From Escherichia phage vB_vPM_PD06, in sequence record NC_052653.1: DNA of 64,000 nucleotides. One strand, 5' to 3'. Each line of letters opens with the position of its first letter. Position 1 is the stretch's first letter. Shown here in pieces: positions 4,508 through 16,019 of the stretch. Under the pieces are notes generated by a model. The model was given only the letters and a program-made list of their open reading frames with translations. It was not told where the DNA came from and ran no database searches. The position numbers were made by a program, and so were the translations under genes.

Positions 4508-4771
4508 TTAGCATACGATAGCGATCACGCCGCCACAAATAAAAGGTAAATCAAAACGGTCTAACTTGCAAGCTATTTTTAAACGAAAGGCAACATAAAA
4601 GAAAAGTTGCAAACAATCGATCATTGTGTTAGCTGTTGAAACGCTGCCAGCATTAAACACCACCACGCCCACGGCGTTAAACGTTGCGTTACTCACGAAA
4701 GCGAAAAGGCAAGCGATCACGGTGGCGATCATAATGTTGCGTTTTGTCAATCTGTAAATGATGTTTTTCAT
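4508..4771 (-). CDS. Hypothetical membrane protein (87 aa)
   Basis: Six-frame ORF; hydrophobic segments. Confidence 0.55.
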   Translation of the reverse strand: MKNIIYRLTKRNIMIATVIACLFAFVSNATFNAVGVVVFNAGSVSTANTMIDCLQLFFYVAFRLKIACKLDRFDLPFICGGVIAIVC

Positions 4772-8974: not shown

Positions 8975-9214
8975 TTACATTCCTACCATAGCGGCACGGA
9001 TTGCAGTTTTACTATACTTGAAACCATCAGGTGTATGAGTGATTCCGTCCTGTTTTAATCTGTAGCACATTAGATCCGCCGCTTTATCTTTATTGCCACA
9101 CTCATTTATTAAACCTACAGCGTATAAGTATAACGATTCATCGTTATTAATCCAAAGGCTTACATTCCAATGAGTTTTGTTTTTGTGACCGTTGTACATT
9201 TTAGATTTAGCCAT
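8975..9214 (-). CDS. Hypothetical protein (79 aa; start moved to internal ATG)
   Basis: ATG at 9214 (MAKSKMYNGHK); longer track ORF overlaps the element. Confidence 0.5.
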   Translation of the reverse strand: MAKSKMYNGHKNKTHWNVSLWINNDESLYLYAVGLINECGNKDKAADLMCYRLKQDGITHTPDGFKYSKTAIRAAMVGM

Positions 9215-9237
9215 GATGTTAATCTCTTTTTCAGTGA

Positions 9238-9278
9238 GGCGGGAACTATTCCCGCTCTCTATGTAATACATTTTACGC
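9238..9278 (-). repeat. Conserved box+hairpin intergenic element
   Basis: GCGGGA-ACTA-TTCCCGC then TCTCTATGTAATACATTTTACGC. Confidence 0.6.
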
Positions 9279-9303
9279 TTTTTATTCGTGCTGTCAATGC
9301 TTT

Positions 9304-9669
9304 TTATAAATCTTTTTTACGTTTAACATCGCTTGCATGACTGTATACAGCGATCCCATTATCACGGCAAAAACGGGAAAGATACGCGCCGCGTGAAAAC
9401 TCTTTACCTTCCATATTAACAACCTTGCTAAACTCTTCCAGGGCAACGGTATCAAAATGATCACCATAACCATATTGAAACGGAACGTTAACGACTTCAA
9501 TCAGTTTACCGCCGATCTCAACGTCAACCATCAAAGAGAAATAAGTATTACCATACGACTTTTGAAACCAGCGACGGGCGCTAATATGTACCGCTTCAAT
9601 GCTGGATAGCTCAATTTTAGCAGTGTTAGCCAGGGTAGCATAAGCAGAAACATTGATATTTTTAGCCAT
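9304..9669 (-). CDS. Hypothetical protein (121 aa)
   Basis: Six-frame ORF with consensus sigma70 promoter upstream. Confidence 0.65.
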   Translation of the reverse strand: MAKNINVSAYATLANTAKIELSSIEAVHISARRWFQKSYGNTYFSLMVDVEIGGKLIEVVNVPFQYGYGDHFDTVALEEFSKVVNMEGKEFSRGAYLSRFCRDNGIAVYSHASDVKRKKDL

Positions 9670-9706
9670 GATTTTATTCCTTAGTAACGCTTTAATTTAT
9701 ATAAGC

Positions 9707-9734
9707 ATTATAGCTTACTGATTTCAGGTGTCAA
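9707..9734 (-). promoter_or_regulatory. Consensus sigma70-type promoter (leftward)
   Basis: On - strand: TTGACA (9734-9729), 16-bp spacer, TATAAT (9712-9707). Confidence 0.6.
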
Positions 9735-9756
9735 GTGATTTTTTATTTCACTTTAT

Positions 9757-9792
9757 GGGGCGTTGCCCCGTTCTATGTGGTATATATTACGG
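9757..9792 (-). repeat. Conserved box+hairpin intergenic element
   Basis: GGGGC-GTT-GCCCC then GTTCTATGTGGTATATATTACGG; lies upstream of the sigma70 promoter, i.e. at the 3' side of the preceding gene. Confidence 0.55.
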
Positions 9793-9815
9793 TGCTTGTT
9801 TGCATATGTCAAGCC

Positions 9816-10370
9816 TTACACAATGCAATTTTCATAATTTTTTAAGGCTTGTCTTTTTTCCTCTTCCGTCGGCATGTATGGCTGGATCTCTTCCTCTTCC
9901 AGGGTAGGCATGATTTCTTCCTCTTCCTCCTGGTCGCCCTGGTCTTCCTCTTGCGCTATGGTAACAAGTTTATTGATCTTCTCCTGGGCTTTAATTAGTT
10001 TTGCATCTAGCACCATTTTAGCGGTGTTGTATACAGTCCATGCCATGCGCTTTTCTGCGTATGCCTTATCTAGTGCGGCTAATTTAGCGGGATACTCTTC
10101 CAACACCTTAAAAGCCGGATCAATGCTGTACAAGGGATTATTTTTAGCGTCATCGCTTGGATCTGCGGCGCTTGCAATGTCAGCGTTACCATTCGCCAGC
10201 CATCCAGGGCGAACGGATCTCGTCCTGGTGTTGCCGTTGCTCTTTGCCGCTCGATTTCCTATCTGCTCCCCGCTATACCCTACCATGTGATCGATCATGT
10301 CATCTGGTATTATGCGCGGATCATTTGCGTCATGCTTTACCCAGGACTGGATCACATATTCACGCCCCAT
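9816..10370 (-). CDS. Hypothetical acidic protein (184 aa)
   Basis: Six-frame ORF; Glu-rich C-terminal region. Confidence 0.65.
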   Translation of the reverse strand: MGREYVIQSWVKHDANDPRIIPDDMIDHMVGYSGEQIGNRAAKSNGNTRTRSVRPGWLANGNADIASAADPSDDAKNNPLYSIDPAFKVLEEYPAKLAALDKAYAEKRMAWTVYNTAKMVLDAKLIKAQEKINKLVTIAQEEDQGDQEEEEEIMPTLEEEEIQPYMPTEEEKRQALKNYENCIV

Positions 10371-10371
10371 G

Positions 10372-10632
10372 TTAGTTCGCCTCTTCTGTTAGTAGTTTAC
10401 ATACCTTAAACATGCTTGCCGCGTCTTTTGACGGTAGCCAGCCTATCCGATACACTCCAGGATCTGGATTAGTTACATCAGTCAGTTGCGCGTTACGATG
10501 ATTAAAAATAGTGTAACCGCCGCCAGCACGGGGATAAACATTATCTTTAAACCTGATAGCGTATCTCGCCAGGTCGAACGTTGTAGCATGTTCAAAAGCG
10601 ATCACATTATCAAAAACTTTTAGAAAAAACAA
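10372..10632 (-). CDS. Hypothetical protein (86 aa; TTG start)
   Basis: TTG start at 10632 preceded by GGGGAGGATAATC RBS. Confidence 0.55.
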   Translation of the reverse strand: MFFLKVFDNVIAFEHATTFDLARYAIRFKDNVYPRAGGGYTIFNHRNAQLTDVTNPDPGVYRIGWLPSKDAASMFKVCKLLTEEAN

Positions 10633-10668
10633 GATTATCCTCCCCAGCGTTTAAAGCCCGTTGCACGG

Positions 10669-10782
10669 TTATTTTTTAACTCTCGTTTTAGTCTCTTGCA
10701 ACGGTTTACAAGTGCAAACCGTGCCGGAGTCGTAACAGTAGCGCCGTTTTTGGTGTGGATACTCATTACATATTGTTTCATA
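10669..10782 (-). CDS. Small basic peptide (37 aa; not in ORF track; weak)
   Basis: ATG at 10782; MKQYVMSIHTKNGATVTTPARFALVNRCKRLKREVKK; weak RBS. Confidence 0.2.
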   Translation of the reverse strand, partial: YETICNEYPHQKRRYCYDSGTVCTCKPLQETKTRVKK

Positions 10783-10790
10783 AAGTTTTA

Positions 10791-10835
10791 CCCTATGTAA
10801 GCGGGAACAATTCCCGCTTTAAGATAGCTTATCAG
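10791..10835 (-). repeat. Variant box+hairpin element (hairpin splits the box)
   Basis: CCCTATGTAA + GCGGGAACAATTCCCGC + TTTAAGATAGCTTATCAG. Confidence 0.45.
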
Positions 10836-10859
10836 GTTTTAGTGCAATGTCAACCGTTT

Positions 10860-11222
10860 TTATTCGTAAATTTTACCGCTTTCTACCCATACCATAACAC
10901 GGCGCATGTTATCCCATGCATCTTGTCGCAGATTTAAGGCATGCAATTCTTCCGTGGTGCTCATACCTGGAACGGGCTTGCTATATGTTACAAAGAGATC
11001 GCCAGCATATTCATAAGCCAGGGTAAGATCACATTGAATCATCTTTTTAATCATAGCATCAAGCATCATATTAGCGGCATGTTGATCACGTTTCAGCGGT
11101 AACGTTGCGATCTGTGTGCGATAGCTTTCGATCCGTGCATCCACTGCATCACGCGAAAGGTTTTTCACGTCATCGCGGAAAGATACCAGATTAAACATGA
11201 TAGTATTGATTTGCTTGCTCAT
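10860..11222 (-). CDS. Hypothetical protein (120 aa; start moved to internal ATG)
   Basis: ATG at 11222 (MSKQINTIMFN) with AAGGG RBS; longer track ORF overlaps the element. Confidence 0.55.
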   Translation of the reverse strand: MSKQINTIMFNLVSFRDDVKNLSRDAVDARIESYRTQIATLPLKRDQHAANMMLDAMIKKMIQCDLTLAYEYAGDLFVTYSKPVPGMSTTEELHALNLRQDAWDNMRRVMVWVESGKIYE

Positions 11223-11244
11223 TGCATTACCCTTTTTTTGTTTT

Positions 11245-11287
11245 GGCGGGGAAGTATTCCGCCGCCCTATGTGATACATCTTATCAG
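11245..11287 (-). repeat. Conserved box+hairpin intergenic element
   Basis: GGCGGGG...CCGCC hairpin then CTATGTGATACATCTTATCAG. Confidence 0.6.
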
Positions 11288-11325
11288 TTTAAAAAACGTT
11301 GTCAAGAATATTTTTAAAAATAATT

Positions 11326-11607
11326 TTAGCTGTATGATCCGCACCGCTCGCAATAGTGATCATCGTCGTCATCTGCCACCTGGCTGATAAAATGATCTAC
11401 CTTTGTTTTTAGGTTATTGTAATTGTTTTCTACTTCCTTTAGTCGTTCCTGGTAGTATTCCAGGGCTTCAATATACGCCGCCTCTTCTGTTTTTTCACGC
11501 ATAGCTAAATTCATGCCGCGCGTATCATCATACAGCCAAAAGCCATCGGTGCACTCACTCATTGAAAGAGTAGGGCTTAACTCTTTATGACTAATTACCT
11601 TGCTCAT
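11326..11607 (-). CDS. Hypothetical protein (93 aa)
   Basis: Six-frame ORF; C-terminal CERCGSYS. Confidence 0.6.
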   Translation of the reverse strand: MSKVISHKELSPTLSMSECTDGFWLYDDTRGMNLAMREKTEEAAYIEALEYYQERLKEVENNYNNLKTKVDHFISQVADDDDDHYCERCGSYS

Positions 11608-11617
11608 AGTGTGCGCC

Positions 11618-11722
11618 TTATAGAATGATTGAAATAATAACTGACACTACAATCCAAAAGGGAACGGCAAGAATGATAGCGTTAATCGTTCCAACCGTCA
11701 AGCTATTCTCTTTCTTGATCAT
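11618..11722 (-). CDS. Small hydrophobic leader peptide (34 aa; not in ORF track)
   Basis: MIKKENSLTVGTINAIILAVPFWIVVSVIISIIL; first ORF downstream of the leftward sigma70 promoter. Confidence 0.3.
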   Translation of the reverse strand: MIKKENSLTVGTINAIILAVPFWIVVSVIISIIL

Positions 11723-11850
11723 CGTTATCAACCTTTTATAAGTAATGTTATTGTGACGGTGGATTGTGGAGATCCTCACCTTTGCCCGTCTTGCATTGCA
11801 CCCGCCTATTGTTTATTGTCGTTGTGCCTTGCCCCCCCTCGACAAGATGA

Positions 11851-11879
11851 ATACTACGCTACCAGGTGAGGAACGTCAA
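11851..11879 (-). promoter_or_regulatory. Sigma70-type promoter driving the leftward array
   Basis: On - strand: TTGACG (11879-11874), 17-bp spacer, TAGTAT (11856-11851). Confidence 0.5.
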
Positions 11880-11989
11880 CCATTTTTTTAATCTTTTTTC
11901 ATTTCTTTTTTGCTTGCTATATATGAAGGAAACGGCTATCATCTTTCTACCGCGCCAACCAGGGCGCACAACAAAGAAAGGGCGATACC

Positions 11990-12256
11990 ATGACAAATAC
12001 TCCTTTACATCTCATGTACTCACTGGGCTGGCAAGGCGGCACGGTGCACCAGGTAGCAAGCGCAACGGGCTTAAAGGTTGAAACCGTTCTCAACCTGGGC
12101 GATCATAAGGTGGAAGAGATAGATCATTTTGATACGTTCGCAAATGGTTATCTATGGGCTTGCAGTGGCGGCGGGGAAAGCAAGATCCCACCAGGGGCGC
12201 GGGGCGACATGTATTTTTGGTTAGGTGTCCTATCCTGGCAAGAAAACAAAAAATAA
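11990..12256 (+). CDS. Possible small protein (88 aa), uncertain
   Basis: Six-frame ORF in the divergent control region; weak RBS; overlapping alternative frames. Confidence 0.2.
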   Translation: MTNTPLHLMYSLGWQGGTVHQVASATGLKVETVLNLGDHKVEEIDHFDTFANGYLWACSGGGESKIPPGARGDMYFWLGVLSWQENKK

Positions 12257-12258
12257 TC

Positions 12259-12287
12259 TTGACAAGCCCAGGGATCGGGCTTATACT
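12259..12287 (+). promoter_or_regulatory. Consensus sigma70-type promoter (rightward) with no obvious ORF downstream
   Basis: TTGACA (12259-12264), 17-bp spacer AGCCCAGGGATCGGGCT, TATACT (12282-12287). Confidence 0.55.
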
Positions 12288-12520
12288 GTTTTACATACAG
12301 AAGAGGAAACGCCACCCCCACGGCGTAAAGGCGGGGCTAACATACCAGGGGGGGCACTGGTTGGAAGGTTGATCGCCGGTAGCTCGTCTAAAATAAATTT
12401 GTAAAGAAATGTAAAGATAAAAATAATCGCTTGCTTTTGTTGTTGGTTATGCTATTCTTATTGTATGGCGAGGGGACACGGGAGCGCGAGACAAACACCG
12501 CCCCTGCGCGTTATTCTGTA

Positions 12521-12631
12521 AATGAGAAAAATTCTCATTTGCTAATGATTCTCATTCTCTTAGTGAGAATGCTTATCATTTACATAATTAAATGATAATG
12601 ATTCTCATTTACAAATGAGAATGATTATCAT
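12521..12631. repeat. Cluster of three palindromes sharing a GAGAAT/ATTCTC core
   Basis: AATGAGAA-aaa-TTCTCATT (12521-12539); CATTCTC-ttagt-GAGAATG (12553-12571); ATGATAATGATTCTCAT...ATGAGAATGATTATCAT (12592-12631). Confidence 0.6.
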
Positions 12632-12655
12632 ACGCATACCCATAAAAACACGAAA

Positions 12656-12857
12656 TTGAACTTTTCATTTTTGATTTTTCTACGGAAAAAGGCAAAAAAA
12701 CTTTAAATAAACTGGGGAATTTTTAAAAAATTGAAGTTTTCATTTTCAAAATCTGGATAGAAATACGTACAAAAACTTTAAATAATTTTGACCAAACTTG
12801 AACTTTTCATTTTCAAAATTTGTACCCAAAAATCTGTAAAAACTTTAAATAATTTTG
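12656..12857. repeat. Three tandem ~67-75 bp direct repeats
   Basis: Units start at 12656, 12731, 12798; each TTGAAC/G-TTTTCATTTTCAAAAT...AAAAACTTTAAATAATTTTG. Confidence 0.6.
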
Positions 12858-13071
12858 TACTTTTTATAAAAATGATTTTACTGTTCTGTTATAAGTAGTA
12901 GTTAAGAGATAGTATGTCTTTTAAAGATCAGATACCATAGTCCAACAAACAAATTAAATACTTTATTAACAGGGTGTAGAATACTACTTACTCTGGATAT
13001 ACTGTGCAGAGGGTGAATTTCCGTACATGAAACCCACACCCCTTTTTATAAAAATAAAAATTTTCAAAATA

Positions 13072-13623
13072 TCAGGAAATATCAGATTGTGCTTTTAGAT
13101 AAACAGCAAGGTCTGTATGCCATTTTCCTAAAAGATTTTGTCCTTTCCAACAATCCTTATTTTCCACGTCCCGATCCCACATCCCCATTTTGATACCATA
13201 AATAGAATCATAAGGGCTTGCCTCTACGAACTCCTTATCTGCGTAAGCGATAAGTTTATTTTTGAGATCTTCATTTTGTGTGTATTTAAGATACAAACCA
13301 CGCTTGACAATCTTCTCCCGTAAAGAAGTCCAAGTAGCTTCATCGTAATCTTTAACTAATCTGCCTAGTCGTTTATAATATGCTTGTTCTTTTTCTCCTG
13401 TATATCTTAGATCTCCGGTTAAAATAGAAGATGCAATACTGTAATCATAAAACAAACATGCTTTTCTCCACATCATATATTGTTCCACACAAGTAAATTC
13501 AACAGAACTTGTAATAGAATTATTATACTTGGGAGCTAAAGGTTCAATAAAAGATGATAGATACCAGTTGCTAAATTCATCTTTTGCCGAGAAGAAGAAC
13601 ACATACTTATCAGTAATCCGCAT
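13072..13623 (-). CDS. NADAR (YbiA/DUF1768-like) domain protein
   Basis: FFFSAKDEFSNWYLSSF...EQYMMWRKA and GLYLKYTQNEDLKNKLIAYADKEFVEASPYDSIYGIKMG align with E. coli YbiA as recalled. Confidence 0.7.
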   Translation of the reverse strand: MRITDKYVFFFSAKDEFSNWYLSSFIEPLAPKYNNSITSSVEFTCVEQYMMWRKACLFYDYSIASSILTGDLRYTGEKEQAYYKRLGRLVKDYDEATWTSLREKIVKRGLYLKYTQNEDLKNKLIAYADKEFVEASPYDSIYGIKMGMWDRDVENKDCWKGQNLLGKWHTDLAVYLKAQSDIS

Positions 13624-14817
13624 TTACATCTCCTTATTATATACTAATTTGCCACCATGTTGTGTAATAATTTCTTGAAGATTTTCCAAATCAGAAACAC
13701 TTACTGTTTCTGTATAACCGTCTTTCAACTCTCTTTCCGTTAAAATACCAGTTTTTAATTTTTTCTTTATAGCTCTTTCAGCAGCCTTACATTGTTTCAC
13801 TGTGCTAAAATCATATAAACAAATACGCTCCATAAAAAACATATTACAACTATTTTGACTATTTAATCGCCTATCACTATCTTTAGCTATACCAAACTTA
13901 AGAGCCACTATAATATCATTATCTTTAACAATATTAATATATAATTGCTGTTGATTATGACCAGCACACTGTGGACAACCTTGACCGAGGCTTAATAAGT
14001 TATTAGCCCTCCCTGTCTGTTCCCCATGCACAAGACAAAGATATTTAAACTTACCGTGACTTCTAGACGGTTTACCGATCCAACCTACCCAGACATACCC
14101 TTGCCCTTCTACTTCCTTTTTTACCCTATAGGTGATCTGGTCTTCTGTATACCGATAGTTCCCACAACGACACGGAATGCACCCTCGTTTAAGGTTATTT
14201 CCTTCAGAGTAAAATTTACCATCACAAACACCTGCTTGAACATATTCATCATGAGAGCAAACAGGACATTCAACCATCCAGATACTATGCCTGCATCCTT
14301 TACTCCGTGTTCCTGTGTTAGTGAAGATAGTGCCTTCCTTAAATTTCCCTGTAGAAAAGAAATCTGCAATATGTTGATCGTCGGACATTGTTAGTGCCTT
14401 CCTTGTATTCTCCCCCCTACATTGTGGACAACCTCGACCGCCTTTAAATTGATGAATTGCTGTACTTTGCCATCTATTCCCACAATGGCACAACAAATCA
14501 AGTTTTGTTTTATTCCCTTTCCATTCTCCAACGTACCCTAACACCTGATACCCCTTCTTCTGTGCTATCTCTTCCAAGATCGGCAATTCTGTTTCCCATG
14601 TTAACGGCTTCTTACCAGAACAGATAGGACAACTGTTACCGTGCTTGAAATTACTAATACTACAAGTCTTCCATTCATGTTCCTGCCTACAGCGTAGAAT
14701 CATTTTCGTATCACAACCTATAAACGGTTCAACATATCCTAGGATCTCAATCCCTTTATTATTCGCAATAGGTTGACACTCTTCTTTATATTGTTCCCAT
14801 GATTTTGGTGCTGCCAT
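13624..14817 (-). CDS. Multi-zinc-ribbon protein with C-terminal T5orf172-like domain
   Basis: Five CPxC knuckles (SCPICSG, GCPQCRG, ECPVCSH, GCIPCRCG, GCPQCAGH); C-terminal ALKFGIAKDSDRRL resembles T5orf172/GIY-YIG-like. Confidence 0.5.
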   Translation of the reverse strand: MAAPKSWEQYKEECQPIANNKGIEILGYVEPFIGCDTKMILRCRQEHEWKTCSISNFKHGNSCPICSGKKPLTWETELPILEEIAQKKGYQVLGYVGEWKGNKTKLDLLCHCGNRWQSTAIHQFKGGRGCPQCRGENTRKALTMSDDQHIADFFSTGKFKEGTIFTNTGTRSKGCRHSIWMVECPVCSHDEYVQAGVCDGKFYSEGNNLKRGCIPCRCGNYRYTEDQITYRVKKEVEGQGYVWVGWIGKPSRSHGKFKYLCLVHGEQTGRANNLLSLGQGCPQCAGHNQQQLYINIVKDNDIIVALKFGIAKDSDRRLNSQNSCNMFFMERICLYDFSTVKQCKAAERAIKKKLKTGILTERELKDGYTETVSVSDLENLQEIITQHGGKLVYNKEM

Positions 14818-14891
14818 CTACTACTCCTCTTATTAAATCTGGCATTAATGCAAGAAAACCCGCCGAAGCGGGTTTTTATTTGCTGGCTTAC

Positions 14892-16019
14892 TTAAAACAC
14901 ACTTGCCAAAGTTGCACCATTGGTGATAGTTGGTTCCAGAACAATACGGAAAGAATCTTCTGGATTATCACTAAACACAACGATTTTACCGCCTGTAATA
15001 AGATCTGCTTTCATTTTTGTCGCATTCAATGGAATTCGAGCATCTCCTTCATCATCAAAAACCACGTAAGAGCTATTAGCAAGGGCTTCTTTAGAGTCTG
15101 CATCACTTGGAGATGACAAGTACACGTCTAGTGTGCACGAACCACCTAAAAAGATTGCAGGTGTGAAGTTATGCCAACTAGATACCCAGCTAACTTTCTG
15201 AAGTTTCCCATTAATAACAACGCTGCTGATATCCCATTTGTTACCACCACCCAAAGAAACGCCCATCATAGAGATGCATTCTTTAAAGGACAAATCAGGG
15301 TAGAAATTAAGTTCTTCTACTATACCTTGGATCACATCAAAGGACAACTCTAAACTTACATCCCAAAGCCTTTGGAAATTATCAAAGTGTGCTTTGTTAT
15401 CCAGGTTTTTATCTAAATAGTCAATCATAGTTTCTAGTGAGATTTTATCATAATTAAAATTATAAAACACACGACTAGGACGATTTAAAAAGAATTCAGA
15501 GATAAAACCACTGTTTTTAGTCAGAATAAACAGTTTATTACCACTGCCAGTACCATCTAACAAAGTGAGAAGTGCTTCTTGATCTTGTTTCTTCTCATAT
15601 ACTTTATCAAACTCGTCAAAAATAATCACTGCTTTGTCGGTGATCTTGCTAATAAGTTCAATGAAATTAGCATCACTGTAGGCTTGAGTAACCATAATAG
15701 TTGGAATACCTTCTTCTACAAGGTCACGACTAATGAGCTTGGCTAACATAGTTTTACCACTGCCCTTAGTTCCTGTCAGAAGCAAACCTGTATTTTTACC
15801 TTGTGCACTCCGGCGATGGAATGTACGGATAACGTGATTTGCTCGTTTTTCTGTTTCACCATACAGAACATCCGGTACACCTGTTAGATTACCACGGCTT
15901 AAAAAATAATTGCCAAGGGGATCACGACTAACAGTATAGAATCCAGGTGGAAGATAATTAGATTCCACACCCATATCTTTATTTACACTTACAATATCAC
16001 CATAAATCGTGTATTTCAT
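14892..16019 (-). CDS. AAA-type ATPase, paralog A
   Basis: Walker A GTKGSGKT, Walker B IIFDEFDK, LLTLLDG; paralog of 31305-32465. Confidence 0.7.
   Translation of the reverse strand: MKYTIYGDIVSVNKDMGVESNYLPPGFYTVSRDPLGNYFLSRGNLTGVPDVLYGETEKRANHVIRTFHRRSAQGKNTGLLLTGTKGSGKTMLAKLISRDLVEEGIPTIMVTQAYSDANFIELISKITDKAVIIFDEFDKVYEKKQDQEALLTLLDGTGSGNKLFILTKNSGFISEFFLNRPSRVFYNFNYDKISLETMIDYLDKNLDNKAHFDNFQRLWDVSLELSFDVIQGIVEELNFYPDLSFKECISMMGVSLGGGNKWDISSVVINGKLQKVSWVSSWHNFTPAIFLGGSCTLDVYLSSPSDADSKEALANSSYVVFDDEGDARIPLNATKMKADLITGGKIVVFSDNPEDSFRIVLEPTITNGATLASVF

Follow-up and report, generated by a model that had tools for sequence, protein, structure and literature searches.

In the 64,000-nucleotide (nt) stretch of Escherichia phage vB_vPM_PD06 studied here (NC_052653.1; the whole stretch is called the window), positions 12259 to about 12386 of the + strand very probably hold a real gene for a structured RNA, which we call RNA-1. 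We favour, at a probability of roughly 0.55, that RNA-1 is a stand-alone early small RNA acting in trans. A preliminary description of the locus, based on the letters of the window, had pointed out a strong promoter (P1) followed by GC-rich stems, and proposed a small RNA, a leader or a primer transcript. Of these, the small RNA is now strongly supported by a conserved promoter, a lack of coding potential and covarying helices. The pseudoknot, the wide conservation and a GC-rich hairpin in the P1 spacer were not part of that description.

Conservation and lack of coding potential

The window belongs to a phi92-like E. coli phage; over 11900-12700 it shares 96-98% identity with Escherichia phage phi92 and with many other genomes of Justusliebigvirus and Phapecoctavirus (Stephanstirmvirinae). 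A sensitive blastn search with 12240-12540 gave matches in 234 phage records, and homologs of RNA-1 were found in Vequintavirinae, Stephanstirmvirinae and Aeromonas phages of the Plateaulakevirus type. In distant genera (Mydovirus, Certrevirus, Seunavirus, Henunavirus and others) the flanks have diverged and only query positions 51-178, corresponding to the predicted start site through 12417, could be aligned, at about 85% identity. When seven genera were aligned, the -35 and -10 hexamers were fixed while the spacer changed, and the core was near-invariant except for one hairpin with a loop of varying length and sequence; judged from this alignment, the pattern is that of an RNA gene.

The core of RNA-1 comprises about 95 nt on the + strand (about 12294-12386), is single-copy in the window and has a GC content of 58%, against 38% for the window. 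More than 40 distinct versions were gathered from annotated phage records, pattern scans of IMG/VR and one metagenome scan, the last of which added one true variant (L101; designations of this type are our own handles). A covariance model of the nested part, made from 25 versions, had a single hit in the window (106.9 bits, E = 1.5e-33). The model also found every homolog, always on the same strand and with 44-109 bits, including variant types outside the seed alignment, whereas chance loci scored about 21 bits or less. A single over-loose pattern scan of bacterial genome contigs, which does not amount to a proper test of absence, returned only chance matches in GC-rich genomes (at most 21 bits). 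A blastn search of RNA-1 against 5,426 complete E. coli genomes, by which short complementarity is undetectable, gave no match at E <= 10.

The lack of an open reading frame (ORF) downstream of P1 was corroborated. No ORF of at least 25 amino acids starts within 12288-12420 on the + strand, and the sole ATG belongs to an ATG-TAA at 12405-12410. Two overlapping + strand ORFs (12154-12372 and 12225-12404) both start 5' of P1, inside the gp224-like gene. Even phi92 differs from the window by insertions and deletions, 1 nt long in the S1 loop (CCCCC versus CCCC) and 1-3 nt or more in the loop of helix C. Since such changes of 1-3 nt between close relatives shift the frame, coding is excluded, and no open frame is preserved among the homologs.

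Known RNA families did not account for the locus. Rfam 15 (4227 models, including riboswitches, ribozymes, C4/CI antisense RNAs, 6S and Y RNA) gave no match to RNA-1; at E <= 1 the region 9000-16000 yielded chance matches elsewhere only, and at E <= 10 the region 12280-12530 yielded only ohsC, with 16 bits against a gathering score of 50. ARAGORN reported 0 tRNA or tmRNA genes in the whole window. With no annotation in the records seen, no Rfam 15 family and no paper found, RNA-1 constitutes a new RNA family within a general kind already known, the phage-encoded small RNAs.

The promoter of RNA-1

P1 was present exactly as first described and agrees with the sigma70 consensus at 11 of 12 positions. 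The claim that it is among the best host-type promoters also stands: the window has 15 sites matching at 11/12 or better, P1 being one of the best on the + strand. A first-order Markov model predicts 2.5 +/- 1.4 such sites, and host-type promoters are therefore genuinely used by this phage, as published for relatives (PMC3606486; PMC7344957). All of 35 distinct homologous upstream sequences contained a sigma70-like site (9-12/12, spacer of 17-18 bp), and its -10 hexamer ended 16-22 nt 5' of helix S1 in every case, although the spacer sequences differ.

In its general make-up P1 fits the sigma70 early promoter class of rV5-like phages, with an UP-like A/T tract, TTGAC(A/G), a spacer of 16-18 bp, TAnnnT and a CAUA(G) start; A-rich stretches precede the promoter in most homologs. 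For Certrevirus the published early-promoter consensus is AAAA(N4)TGTTGAC(N17)TATAAT (PMC7344957). P1 differs from the other early promoters of the class in that its spacer is a GC-rich hairpin, with 71% GC compared to 24-59% in the other strong early promoters of the window. From its sequence this hairpin looks like the terminator of the upstream gp224-like ORF. The inverted repeat is kept in most relatives with a different sequence, and besides terminating gp224 it may be an operator. It is present even where no + strand ORF lies upstream (CR9, POP17).

The start of RNA-1 was predicted by two criteria, its spacing from the -10 hexamer and the CAUAG-type starts seen at other early promoters of the phage. 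The 5' leader that follows is variable in sequence, with its A/G-rich character kept.

Evidence for a pseudoknot followed by a bulged helix

Comparison of the versions supported an H-type pseudoknot composed of helices S1 and S2, in which S2 would lead directly into a bulged helix C and then a single-stranded tail (Table 1). Both GC-rich stems quoted in the preliminary description exist, the first being S1 (CGCC/GGCG) and the second (CCAG, 12345-48, with CTGG, 12357-60) a part of helix C.

Base pairs are kept by compensatory substitutions in S1, S2 and helix C, each of which exhibits changes on both sides. The forms of S1 are CGCC/GGCG and, for L240 and L253, GGAC/GUCU; its pair 13-24 is CG (n = 20) or AU (n = 1), and pair 11-26 is CG (n = 17) or GU (n = 1). 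S2 is more varied (CCCC/GGGG, CUCC/GGGG, CCAA/UUGG, CCAG/CUGG and CCAU/AUGG), with AU (n = 11) or CG (n = 10) at pair 20-34 and AU (n = 8), GC (n = 1) or UA (n = 1) at pair 21-33. An alignment of S1 and S2 (A5) had 91.7% of its cells paired, compared to 24-47% with slid partners, and four of the eight pairs had changed on both sides. Its covariation score was 0.207 against 0.057 in shuffles, a value reached by none of 500 shuffles; over the alignments such scores ranged from 0.17 to 0.21, with 0.06 in shuffles. For helix C alone 90.6% of the cells were paired and 5/9 pairs had changed on both sides, and at least eight unrelated sequence versions form this hairpin at the same place. Taken together, the three helices had 88% of cells paired (23-48% when slid) and seven pairs changed on both sides. 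The G-U pairs in the helices favour the + strand. Loop L3 tolerates additional sequence, for in L228 and L261 about 50 nt containing three small hairpins are inserted there.

The 3' tail contains the motif ATCGCCGG in nearly all versions, from E. coli to Aeromonas phages, while a few read ATCGCTGG; no strand covarying with the tail was found.

Other pairings were tried and rejected. An alternative helix of GGCG with a 3' CGCCG, which would act as a switch against S1, is broken in L240 and L253, and both keep S1 by double substitution. Minimum-free-energy folding predicted a helix B (GGC 12330-32 with GCC 12375-77); as its GGC is missing from the variant classes, it is not a feature of the family. 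Furthermore, in the standard type of RNA-1, GGGGCUA (12333-39) together with UAGCUC (12380-85) has the sequence of nucleotides 1-7 and 66-71 in the tRNA-Ala acceptor stem of E. coli (alaV), G3:U70 included. This identity spans 13 of 14 nt. The corresponding tRNA-like pairing could not coexist with S2 and the base of helix C, is missing from the variant classes and received no ARAGORN call. In several relatives the tail continues as G-N-CCA.

Table 1. Positions of RNA-1, its promoter and other features of the locus (window numbering unless another sequence is named).
Feature	Position	Strand	Remarks
UP-like A/T-rich stretch caagaaaacaaaaaataatc	12237-12258	+	5' of the -35 hexamer
Promoter P1, TTGACA-17 bp-TATACT	12259-12287	+	-35 at 12259-12264, -10 at 12282-12287; 11/12 consensus positions
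Hairpin within the P1 spacer	12264-12282	+	stem AAGCCC/GGGCTT, loop AGGGATC; from terminator scan; followed by ATACTGTTTT (TATACTGTTTT)
Predicted transcription start and purine-rich unpaired 5' leader	12293-12309	+	start at about 12293-12297 within ACATACAG
Helix S1	12310-12325	+	CGCC (12310-13) pairs with GGCG (12322-25); 8-nt loop ACCCCCAC
Pseudoknot helix S2, 5' strand	within 12315-12319 (S1 loop)	+	CCCC pairs with GGGG (12333-36)
Loop L3 and S2 3' strand	12326-12336	+	L3 A-rich (TAAAGGC); 3' strand GGGG (12333-36)
Helix C	12337-12367	+	CU (12337-38)/AG (12366-67); C-A-(U bulge)-ACCAG (12341-48)/CTGGTTG (12357-63); apical loop 12349-56 variable
3' tail GTTGATCGCCGGTAGCTCG (GATCGCCGGTAGCTCG, GAUCGCCGGUAGCUCG, GUUGAUCGCCGGUAGCUCG)	12368-12386	+	near-invariant, predicted unpaired
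Variable A/U-rich stretch, then direct repeat TGTAAAGA-AA-TGTAAAGA	12387-12430	+	repeat at 12400-12417; just 5' of P2
Second promoter P2	12431-12458	+	weak in the window (TTGCTT-16-TATTCT), TTGCAA-17-TATATT in relatives; outside RNA-1; no ORF
Hairpin opening the P2 transcript (RNA-2)	12465-12514	+	AUGGCG...CGUUAU and AGGGG...CCCCU paired; conserved loop GAGACAAACACC
gp224-like ORF, 88 amino acids	11990-12256	+	immediately 5' of P1, same strand; outside RNA-1
gp223, NADAR-domain protein	13072-13623	-	right-hand neighbour
gp222, CapR and T5orf172 endonuclease-like protein	13624-14817	-	right-hand neighbour
Starts of early transcripts with 5' hairpin	11271, 9777, 9263, 8931, 8613, 5745, 5376, 4805, 4390, 3591, 1790	-	
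Variant L039	4802-4889 of IMG/VR UViG_3300026472_000003		no other variant above chance against the type I-E repeat

RNA-1 as a separate gene in relatives

In the Aeromonas-type phages PAc, L240, L228 and L261 the order is promoter, RNA-1 core, A/U-rich spacer, terminator-like hairpin and then a convergent gene, the hairpin following the core after 26-50 nt in L240, L228 and PAc. Five genes lie between the RNA-1 gene and the module of hairpin, palindrome and iterons. In PAc a P2-type hairpin, one palindrome and iterons are found 1.8 kb from RNA-1, behind another promoter and a small + strand ORF. From this arrangement RNA-1 is therefore a separable gene.

Evidence bearing on the importance of RNA-1 comes from a homing endonuclease. 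In Raoultella phage Ro1 (L007 2509-3345) a gene for an HNH homing endonuclease is situated between two copies of RNA-1. The first copy is of the standard type and cut off after GGATCGCTGGTAC, and the second is a complete variant (CCAA/TTGG type) with a TTGACA-17-CATAAT promoter of its own. Pectobacterium phage P7_Pc (L103 1297-1581) shares this arrangement, except that most of the HNH gene has been deleted, leaving a 3' remnant; the deletion fused GGATCGCCG in RNA-1 to another occurrence of this motif close to the 3' end of the HNH gene. Klebsiella phage P8734 has the variant RNA-1 only. As far as the sequences tell, the pattern in Ro1 and P7_Pc is the trace expected if a homing endonuclease cleaves the standard allele and brings along one that resists it. 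That the cassette comes with its own promoter and RNA copy would be expected if the phage cannot afford to lose RNA-1. The cassette thus argues that RNA-1 is conserved enough to serve as a target and important enough to be replaced.

Known stand-alone small RNA genes of bacteria and phages have a sigma70 promoter, a structured RNA of about 100-200 nt, an intrinsic terminator and no ORF. Compared to these, RNA-1 is alike in having its own host-type promoter, no ORF, a structured core with a conserved unpaired stretch and, in the Aeromonas-type phages (L240, L228), a terminator-like hairpin. It is unlike them in lacking a family match, an evident long U tail or Hfq-type 3' module, and a terminator directly after the core in the window.

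Proposed function in trans and alternative explanations

According to the reading that we favour, the sigma70 RNA polymerase of the host would start at about 12293-12297, presumably early in infection. The first ~95 nt of the transcript would then fold, CCCC in the S1 loop pairing with the downstream GGGG to give S2, with the A-rich third loop between S1 and the GGGG strand and helix C directly after S2. RNA-1 would act in trans as a folded molecule, most likely by binding and titrating or redirecting a conserved host or phage protein, or else by base-pairing through its invariant tail, and would be neither a primer, a leader nor a DNA site. We favour action in trans because the junctions are invariant while the helices covary, because phages of both Enterobacterales and Aeromonas conserve the RNA, and because it is independent of its neighbours.

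Several observations weigh against this reading. We infer action in trans from the gene arrangement only. The compensatory changes come from few lineages and thus represent few independent events. The folding suggested in the preliminary description gave a divided answer: the pseudoknot and helix C covary, but the nested minimum-free-energy fold is no better than that of shuffles (z = -0.2 and -0.4). A weak nested fold is unsurprising for a pseudoknot, and the thermodynamic signal by itself would not convince. Neither a binding partner nor a pairing target came to light. When the complement of the tail was sought across the 64-kb window, allowing at most 3 mismatches, only the tail itself was returned. 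Among rRNA and the rrnH tRNAs the longest perfect complement was 9 nt (23S position 104; about 0.2 expected by chance), and duplex energies of tail and rRNA were no better than with shuffled tails. As complementarity to rRNA is at the level of chance, the Shine-Dalgarno-like AAGGUGGAUC is no evidence of pairing with 16S. The terminator scan revealed no intrinsic terminator directly after the core in the window, so that read-through toward P2 and the palindromes is possible. In the literature we found no transcriptome of these phages and no description of the RNA. As a separate candidate function, a sponge for CsrA was rejected: GGA motifs are not conserved, the 5' leaders of pEp01, SalP219 and PAc have none, and PAc lacks them anywhere in the RNA.

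The preliminary description had suggested a primer transcript. Transcription from P1 would then enter the palindrome and iteron region (12523-12873) and open or prime a replication origin, with the folded 5' part aiding or regulating an RNA-DNA hybrid. Transcription-primed origins include oriF and oriG of T4, the primary origin of T7 and RNA II of ColE1, and the likeness lies in ORF-less promoters pointing into A/T-rich repeats. The direction claimed for P1 holds for all enterobacterial phages examined, in which the RNA gene points at a non-coding region containing five palindromes, three A/T-rich iterons (about 70 bp each) and additional + strand promoters that lack an ORF. Iteron-like AAAAATTTTTT repeats follow RNA-1 closely in L101, and no origin-binding initiator has been recognised in these phages (PMC3606486). 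The arrangement differs in the Aeromonas-type phages, where the terminator faces a convergent gene and the iteron module is five genes away (a separation seen in PAc, L240 and L228). Moreover P2, and in relatives P3 as well, is located between RNA-1 and the iterons and is better placed for priming, and the GC skew switches near 18 kb and not near 12.5 kb. To our knowledge, neither origin transcripts of the T4 and T7 types nor ColE1 RNA II need or carry a conserved pseudoknot, which also counts against a primer. Weakened by these comparisons, an origin function for P1 transcription appears unlikely, and it is kept under consideration because no terminator follows the core in the window. A switch or catalytic RNA controlling or processing its own P1 transcript in cis (riboswitch-like, put-like or self-cleaving) seems distinctly unlikely. 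The conservation does resemble that of an aptamer or ribozyme, with covarying helices and invariant junctions (AAA in L3, CUAAC, GGAAGGU and AUCGCCGG), and in the standard type GGGCUA (12334-39) could pair with UAGCUC (12380-85) in competition with S2 and the base of helix C. The latter pairing is not kept in the variant classes, however, and the competing GGCG:3' CGCCG helix is broken in L240, where S1 is kept by compensation. The put RNAs of phage HK022 are two stem-loops without a pseudoknot that act on downstream genes. RNA-1 shares with them that a folded RNA begins shortly after an early sigma70 promoter (here about 15 nt after the start) and needs no ORF, but it has no sequence similarity to put and nothing downstream to be read through. 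No ORF follows the element in any homolog examined, save the HNH gene inserted secondarily in Ro1, which leaves nothing to regulate and the proposed leader without support; in the Aeromonas-type phages the terminator stands at a fixed short distance regardless of the element. In the pistol ribozyme (RF02679) a hairpin with a pseudoknotting loop is followed by an A-rich linker, the 3' strand of the pseudoknot, a second hairpin and a conserved 3' strand containing G-U. RNA-1 has the same order of elements. Membership is contradicted by the lack of any Rfam riboswitch or ribozyme match even at E <= 10 and by the P2 helix of the ribozyme, whose equivalent (GGC/GCC) is missing in the variant classes.

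The remaining explanations are weaker still. A site acting at the DNA level (a homing-endonuclease target, or a site for protein binding, single-strand initiation or recombination), with an incidental promoter, would agree with the HNH gene inserted exactly inside the element in Ro1 and with its remnant in P7_Pc, as homing endonucleases choose conserved DNA, and the helices could form in single-stranded DNA too. We hold it to be very doubtful, as it leaves unexplained the sigma70 promoter at a fixed distance in 35/35 sequences, the terminators after the element, the compensated pseudoknot and the second complete promoter and RNA copy of the HNH cassette. RNA anti-CRISPRs (Racrs) are defined by similarity in sequence and structure to a CRISPR repeat (Camara-Wilpert et al. 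2023, PMC10651486), and a Racr-like RNA-1 would mimic the type I-E repeat and titrate Cas6e or Cascade subunits. As for solitary repeat units (PMC10651486), a strong promoter lies immediately 5' of a short ORF-less hairpin RNA, within ~250 bp upstream, in an accessory region of the phage, and no cas genes are nearby. Variant L039 matches the I-E repeat of E. coli K-12 at 15/16 positions (CCAGCGGCGATAAACC versus CCAGCGGGGATAAACC), as none of 500 shuffles did, and the standard type has GCGGGGCTAA against GCGGGGATAA in the repeat. Yet the L039 match emerged post hoc from a set of about 40 variants, and the window, KB57, CR9, pEp01, P8734 and PAc are at chance against the I-E repeat, 7-87% of shuffles being as good; the window RNA scores 15 against the K-12 repeat (L226), a value equalled by 13% of shuffles. 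No similarity to the I-F repeat exceeded chance, the matching piece falls in different structural parts in different classes, and the 6-bp hairpin of the repeat is not reproduced. An anti-CRISPR of this kind is hence hardly probable. Least credence of all we give to a small protein from a non-ATG start, such as the 59-codon GTG ORF at 12225-12404 that some GenBank records annotate as hypothetical, even though several records have such features there and the leader has a Shine-Dalgarno-like GAGG. The GTG and ATG ORFs start 5' of P1 inside the gp224-like gene, every frame is disrupted among close relatives by insertions and deletions of 1 and 2 nt, and the Shine-Dalgarno-like leader is not conserved (pEp01, SalP219, PAc) and has no start codon 5-9 nt after it.

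For an RNA acting in trans there is a precedent among rV5-like phages. The pseudo-ToxI of phage PhiTE is a non-coding pseudoknot RNA that serves as a decoy for a host defence protein (Blower et al. 2012, PMC3475682). PhiTE also carries an RNA-1 homolog (JQ015307 39703-39788), at some other place than pseudo-ToxI (106,714-106,772). The two sequences are unrelated, RNA-1 is not repetitive, and no similarity to host antitoxins was found.

A bolder and tentative suggestion is that RNA-1 founds a new functional class, either a compact pseudoknot RNA, produced within the first minutes of infection, that neutralises a conserved host factor of Enterobacterales and Aeromonas (for instance a nuclease active in defence, a global regulator that binds RNA, or a Cas protein), or a new ligand-sensing or self-cleaving fold. 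If true, this would explain why the junctions are invariant across subfamilies, why the strong promoter is kept and why the HNH cassette brings its own copy.

As a candidate that can be tested directly, RNA-1 may have an RNA-based role in host takeover or against host defence; very few such roles are known in virulent phages. Myoviruses related to rV5, phi92, PVP-SE1 and CR3 count among the most frequently isolated phages and those most used in therapy and biocontrol, and they include the model phages phi92 and PhiTE as well as members of the BASEL collection. The structure model and the covariance model can be used for finding RNA-1 elsewhere. The finding also corrects the annotation of a locus treated so far as empty or as holding spurious 'hypothetical proteins'.

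The region downstream of RNA-1

The TGTAAAGA direct repeat that precedes P2 is kept in enterobacterial phages and is not present in PAc, L240 and L101. P2 and its hairpin have exactly the architecture of the other early promoters of the phage, and the stem of the RNA-2 hairpin covaries. It is P2, and not P1, that heads the palindrome and iteron region. The RNA-2 hairpin is in addition a candidate terminator of RNA-1, because it is followed by UUAUUCUGU.

Five 15-bp palindromes TGAGAATnATTCTCA are found at 12523-12630. They resemble the Fur 7-1-7 box TGATAATnATTATCA at 11-13 of 14 positions and match GATAATGATAATCATTATC on the - strand at up to 16/19. Palindromes of this kind are kept after the P2 hairpin in all relatives, with one copy in Aeromonas phage PAc (L102 about 4570-4590), and they may serve as Fur sites or as operators bound by a phage protein. 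Far from this cluster, a strong Fur-box-like site AATAATGATAATCATTCTT (16/19) is located at 738-756 on the - strand.

The palindromes are followed at 12653-12873 by three A/T-rich iterons of 67-75 bp, each with TTGAAC/GTTTTCATTTTCAAAAT and AAAAACTTTAAATAA and no ORF, which are a candidate replication origin or other cis site. Relatives have analogous but different repeats (AAAAAATTTTTT...).

Early promoters and neighbouring genes

The leftward promoter that was thought to drive the early genes divergently from P1 (11879-11851) does exist, but it matches the consensus at only 9/12 positions. At least 11 strong early promoters of the - strand have CAUAG or CGUAG at the start site, followed immediately by a GC-rich hairpin (GGCGGG-loop-CCCGCC). 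The energies of these hairpins range from -8 to -17.5 kcal/mol, with a single one weaker than -12.8. A 5' hairpin of this kind seems to be a family-wide feature of early mRNAs and could act in stabilisation or recognition.

In phi92 the RNA-1 locus is situated inside a gap of about 815 bp without annotated genes, between gp224 and gp223, and the gene arrays on both flanks of the gap are on the - strand. The gp224-like ORF has no Pfam match and belongs to PHROG 19316, a group of unknown function; CR9, pEp_SNUABM_01 and PAc have the RNA-1 gene without this ORF upstream. The genes for gp223 (NADAR) and gp222 (CapR/T5orf172) are limited to phi92-like phages and missing at the same position in Vequintavirinae, which suggests that the pair is an accessory or mobile insertion adjoining a conserved non-coding island.

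None of the records seen has an RNA annotated at the locus, which the rV5 paper marks merely as a 'non-coding' box (PMC3606486). In several GenBank records coding features labelled 'hypothetical protein' are drawn over the RNA-1 gene. Five other GenBank records labelled as Campylobacter phages (MG065639, 'Campylobacter phage A150', etc.) are about 97% identical to E. coli phi92-like phages at the locus, and their host label is probably wrong.

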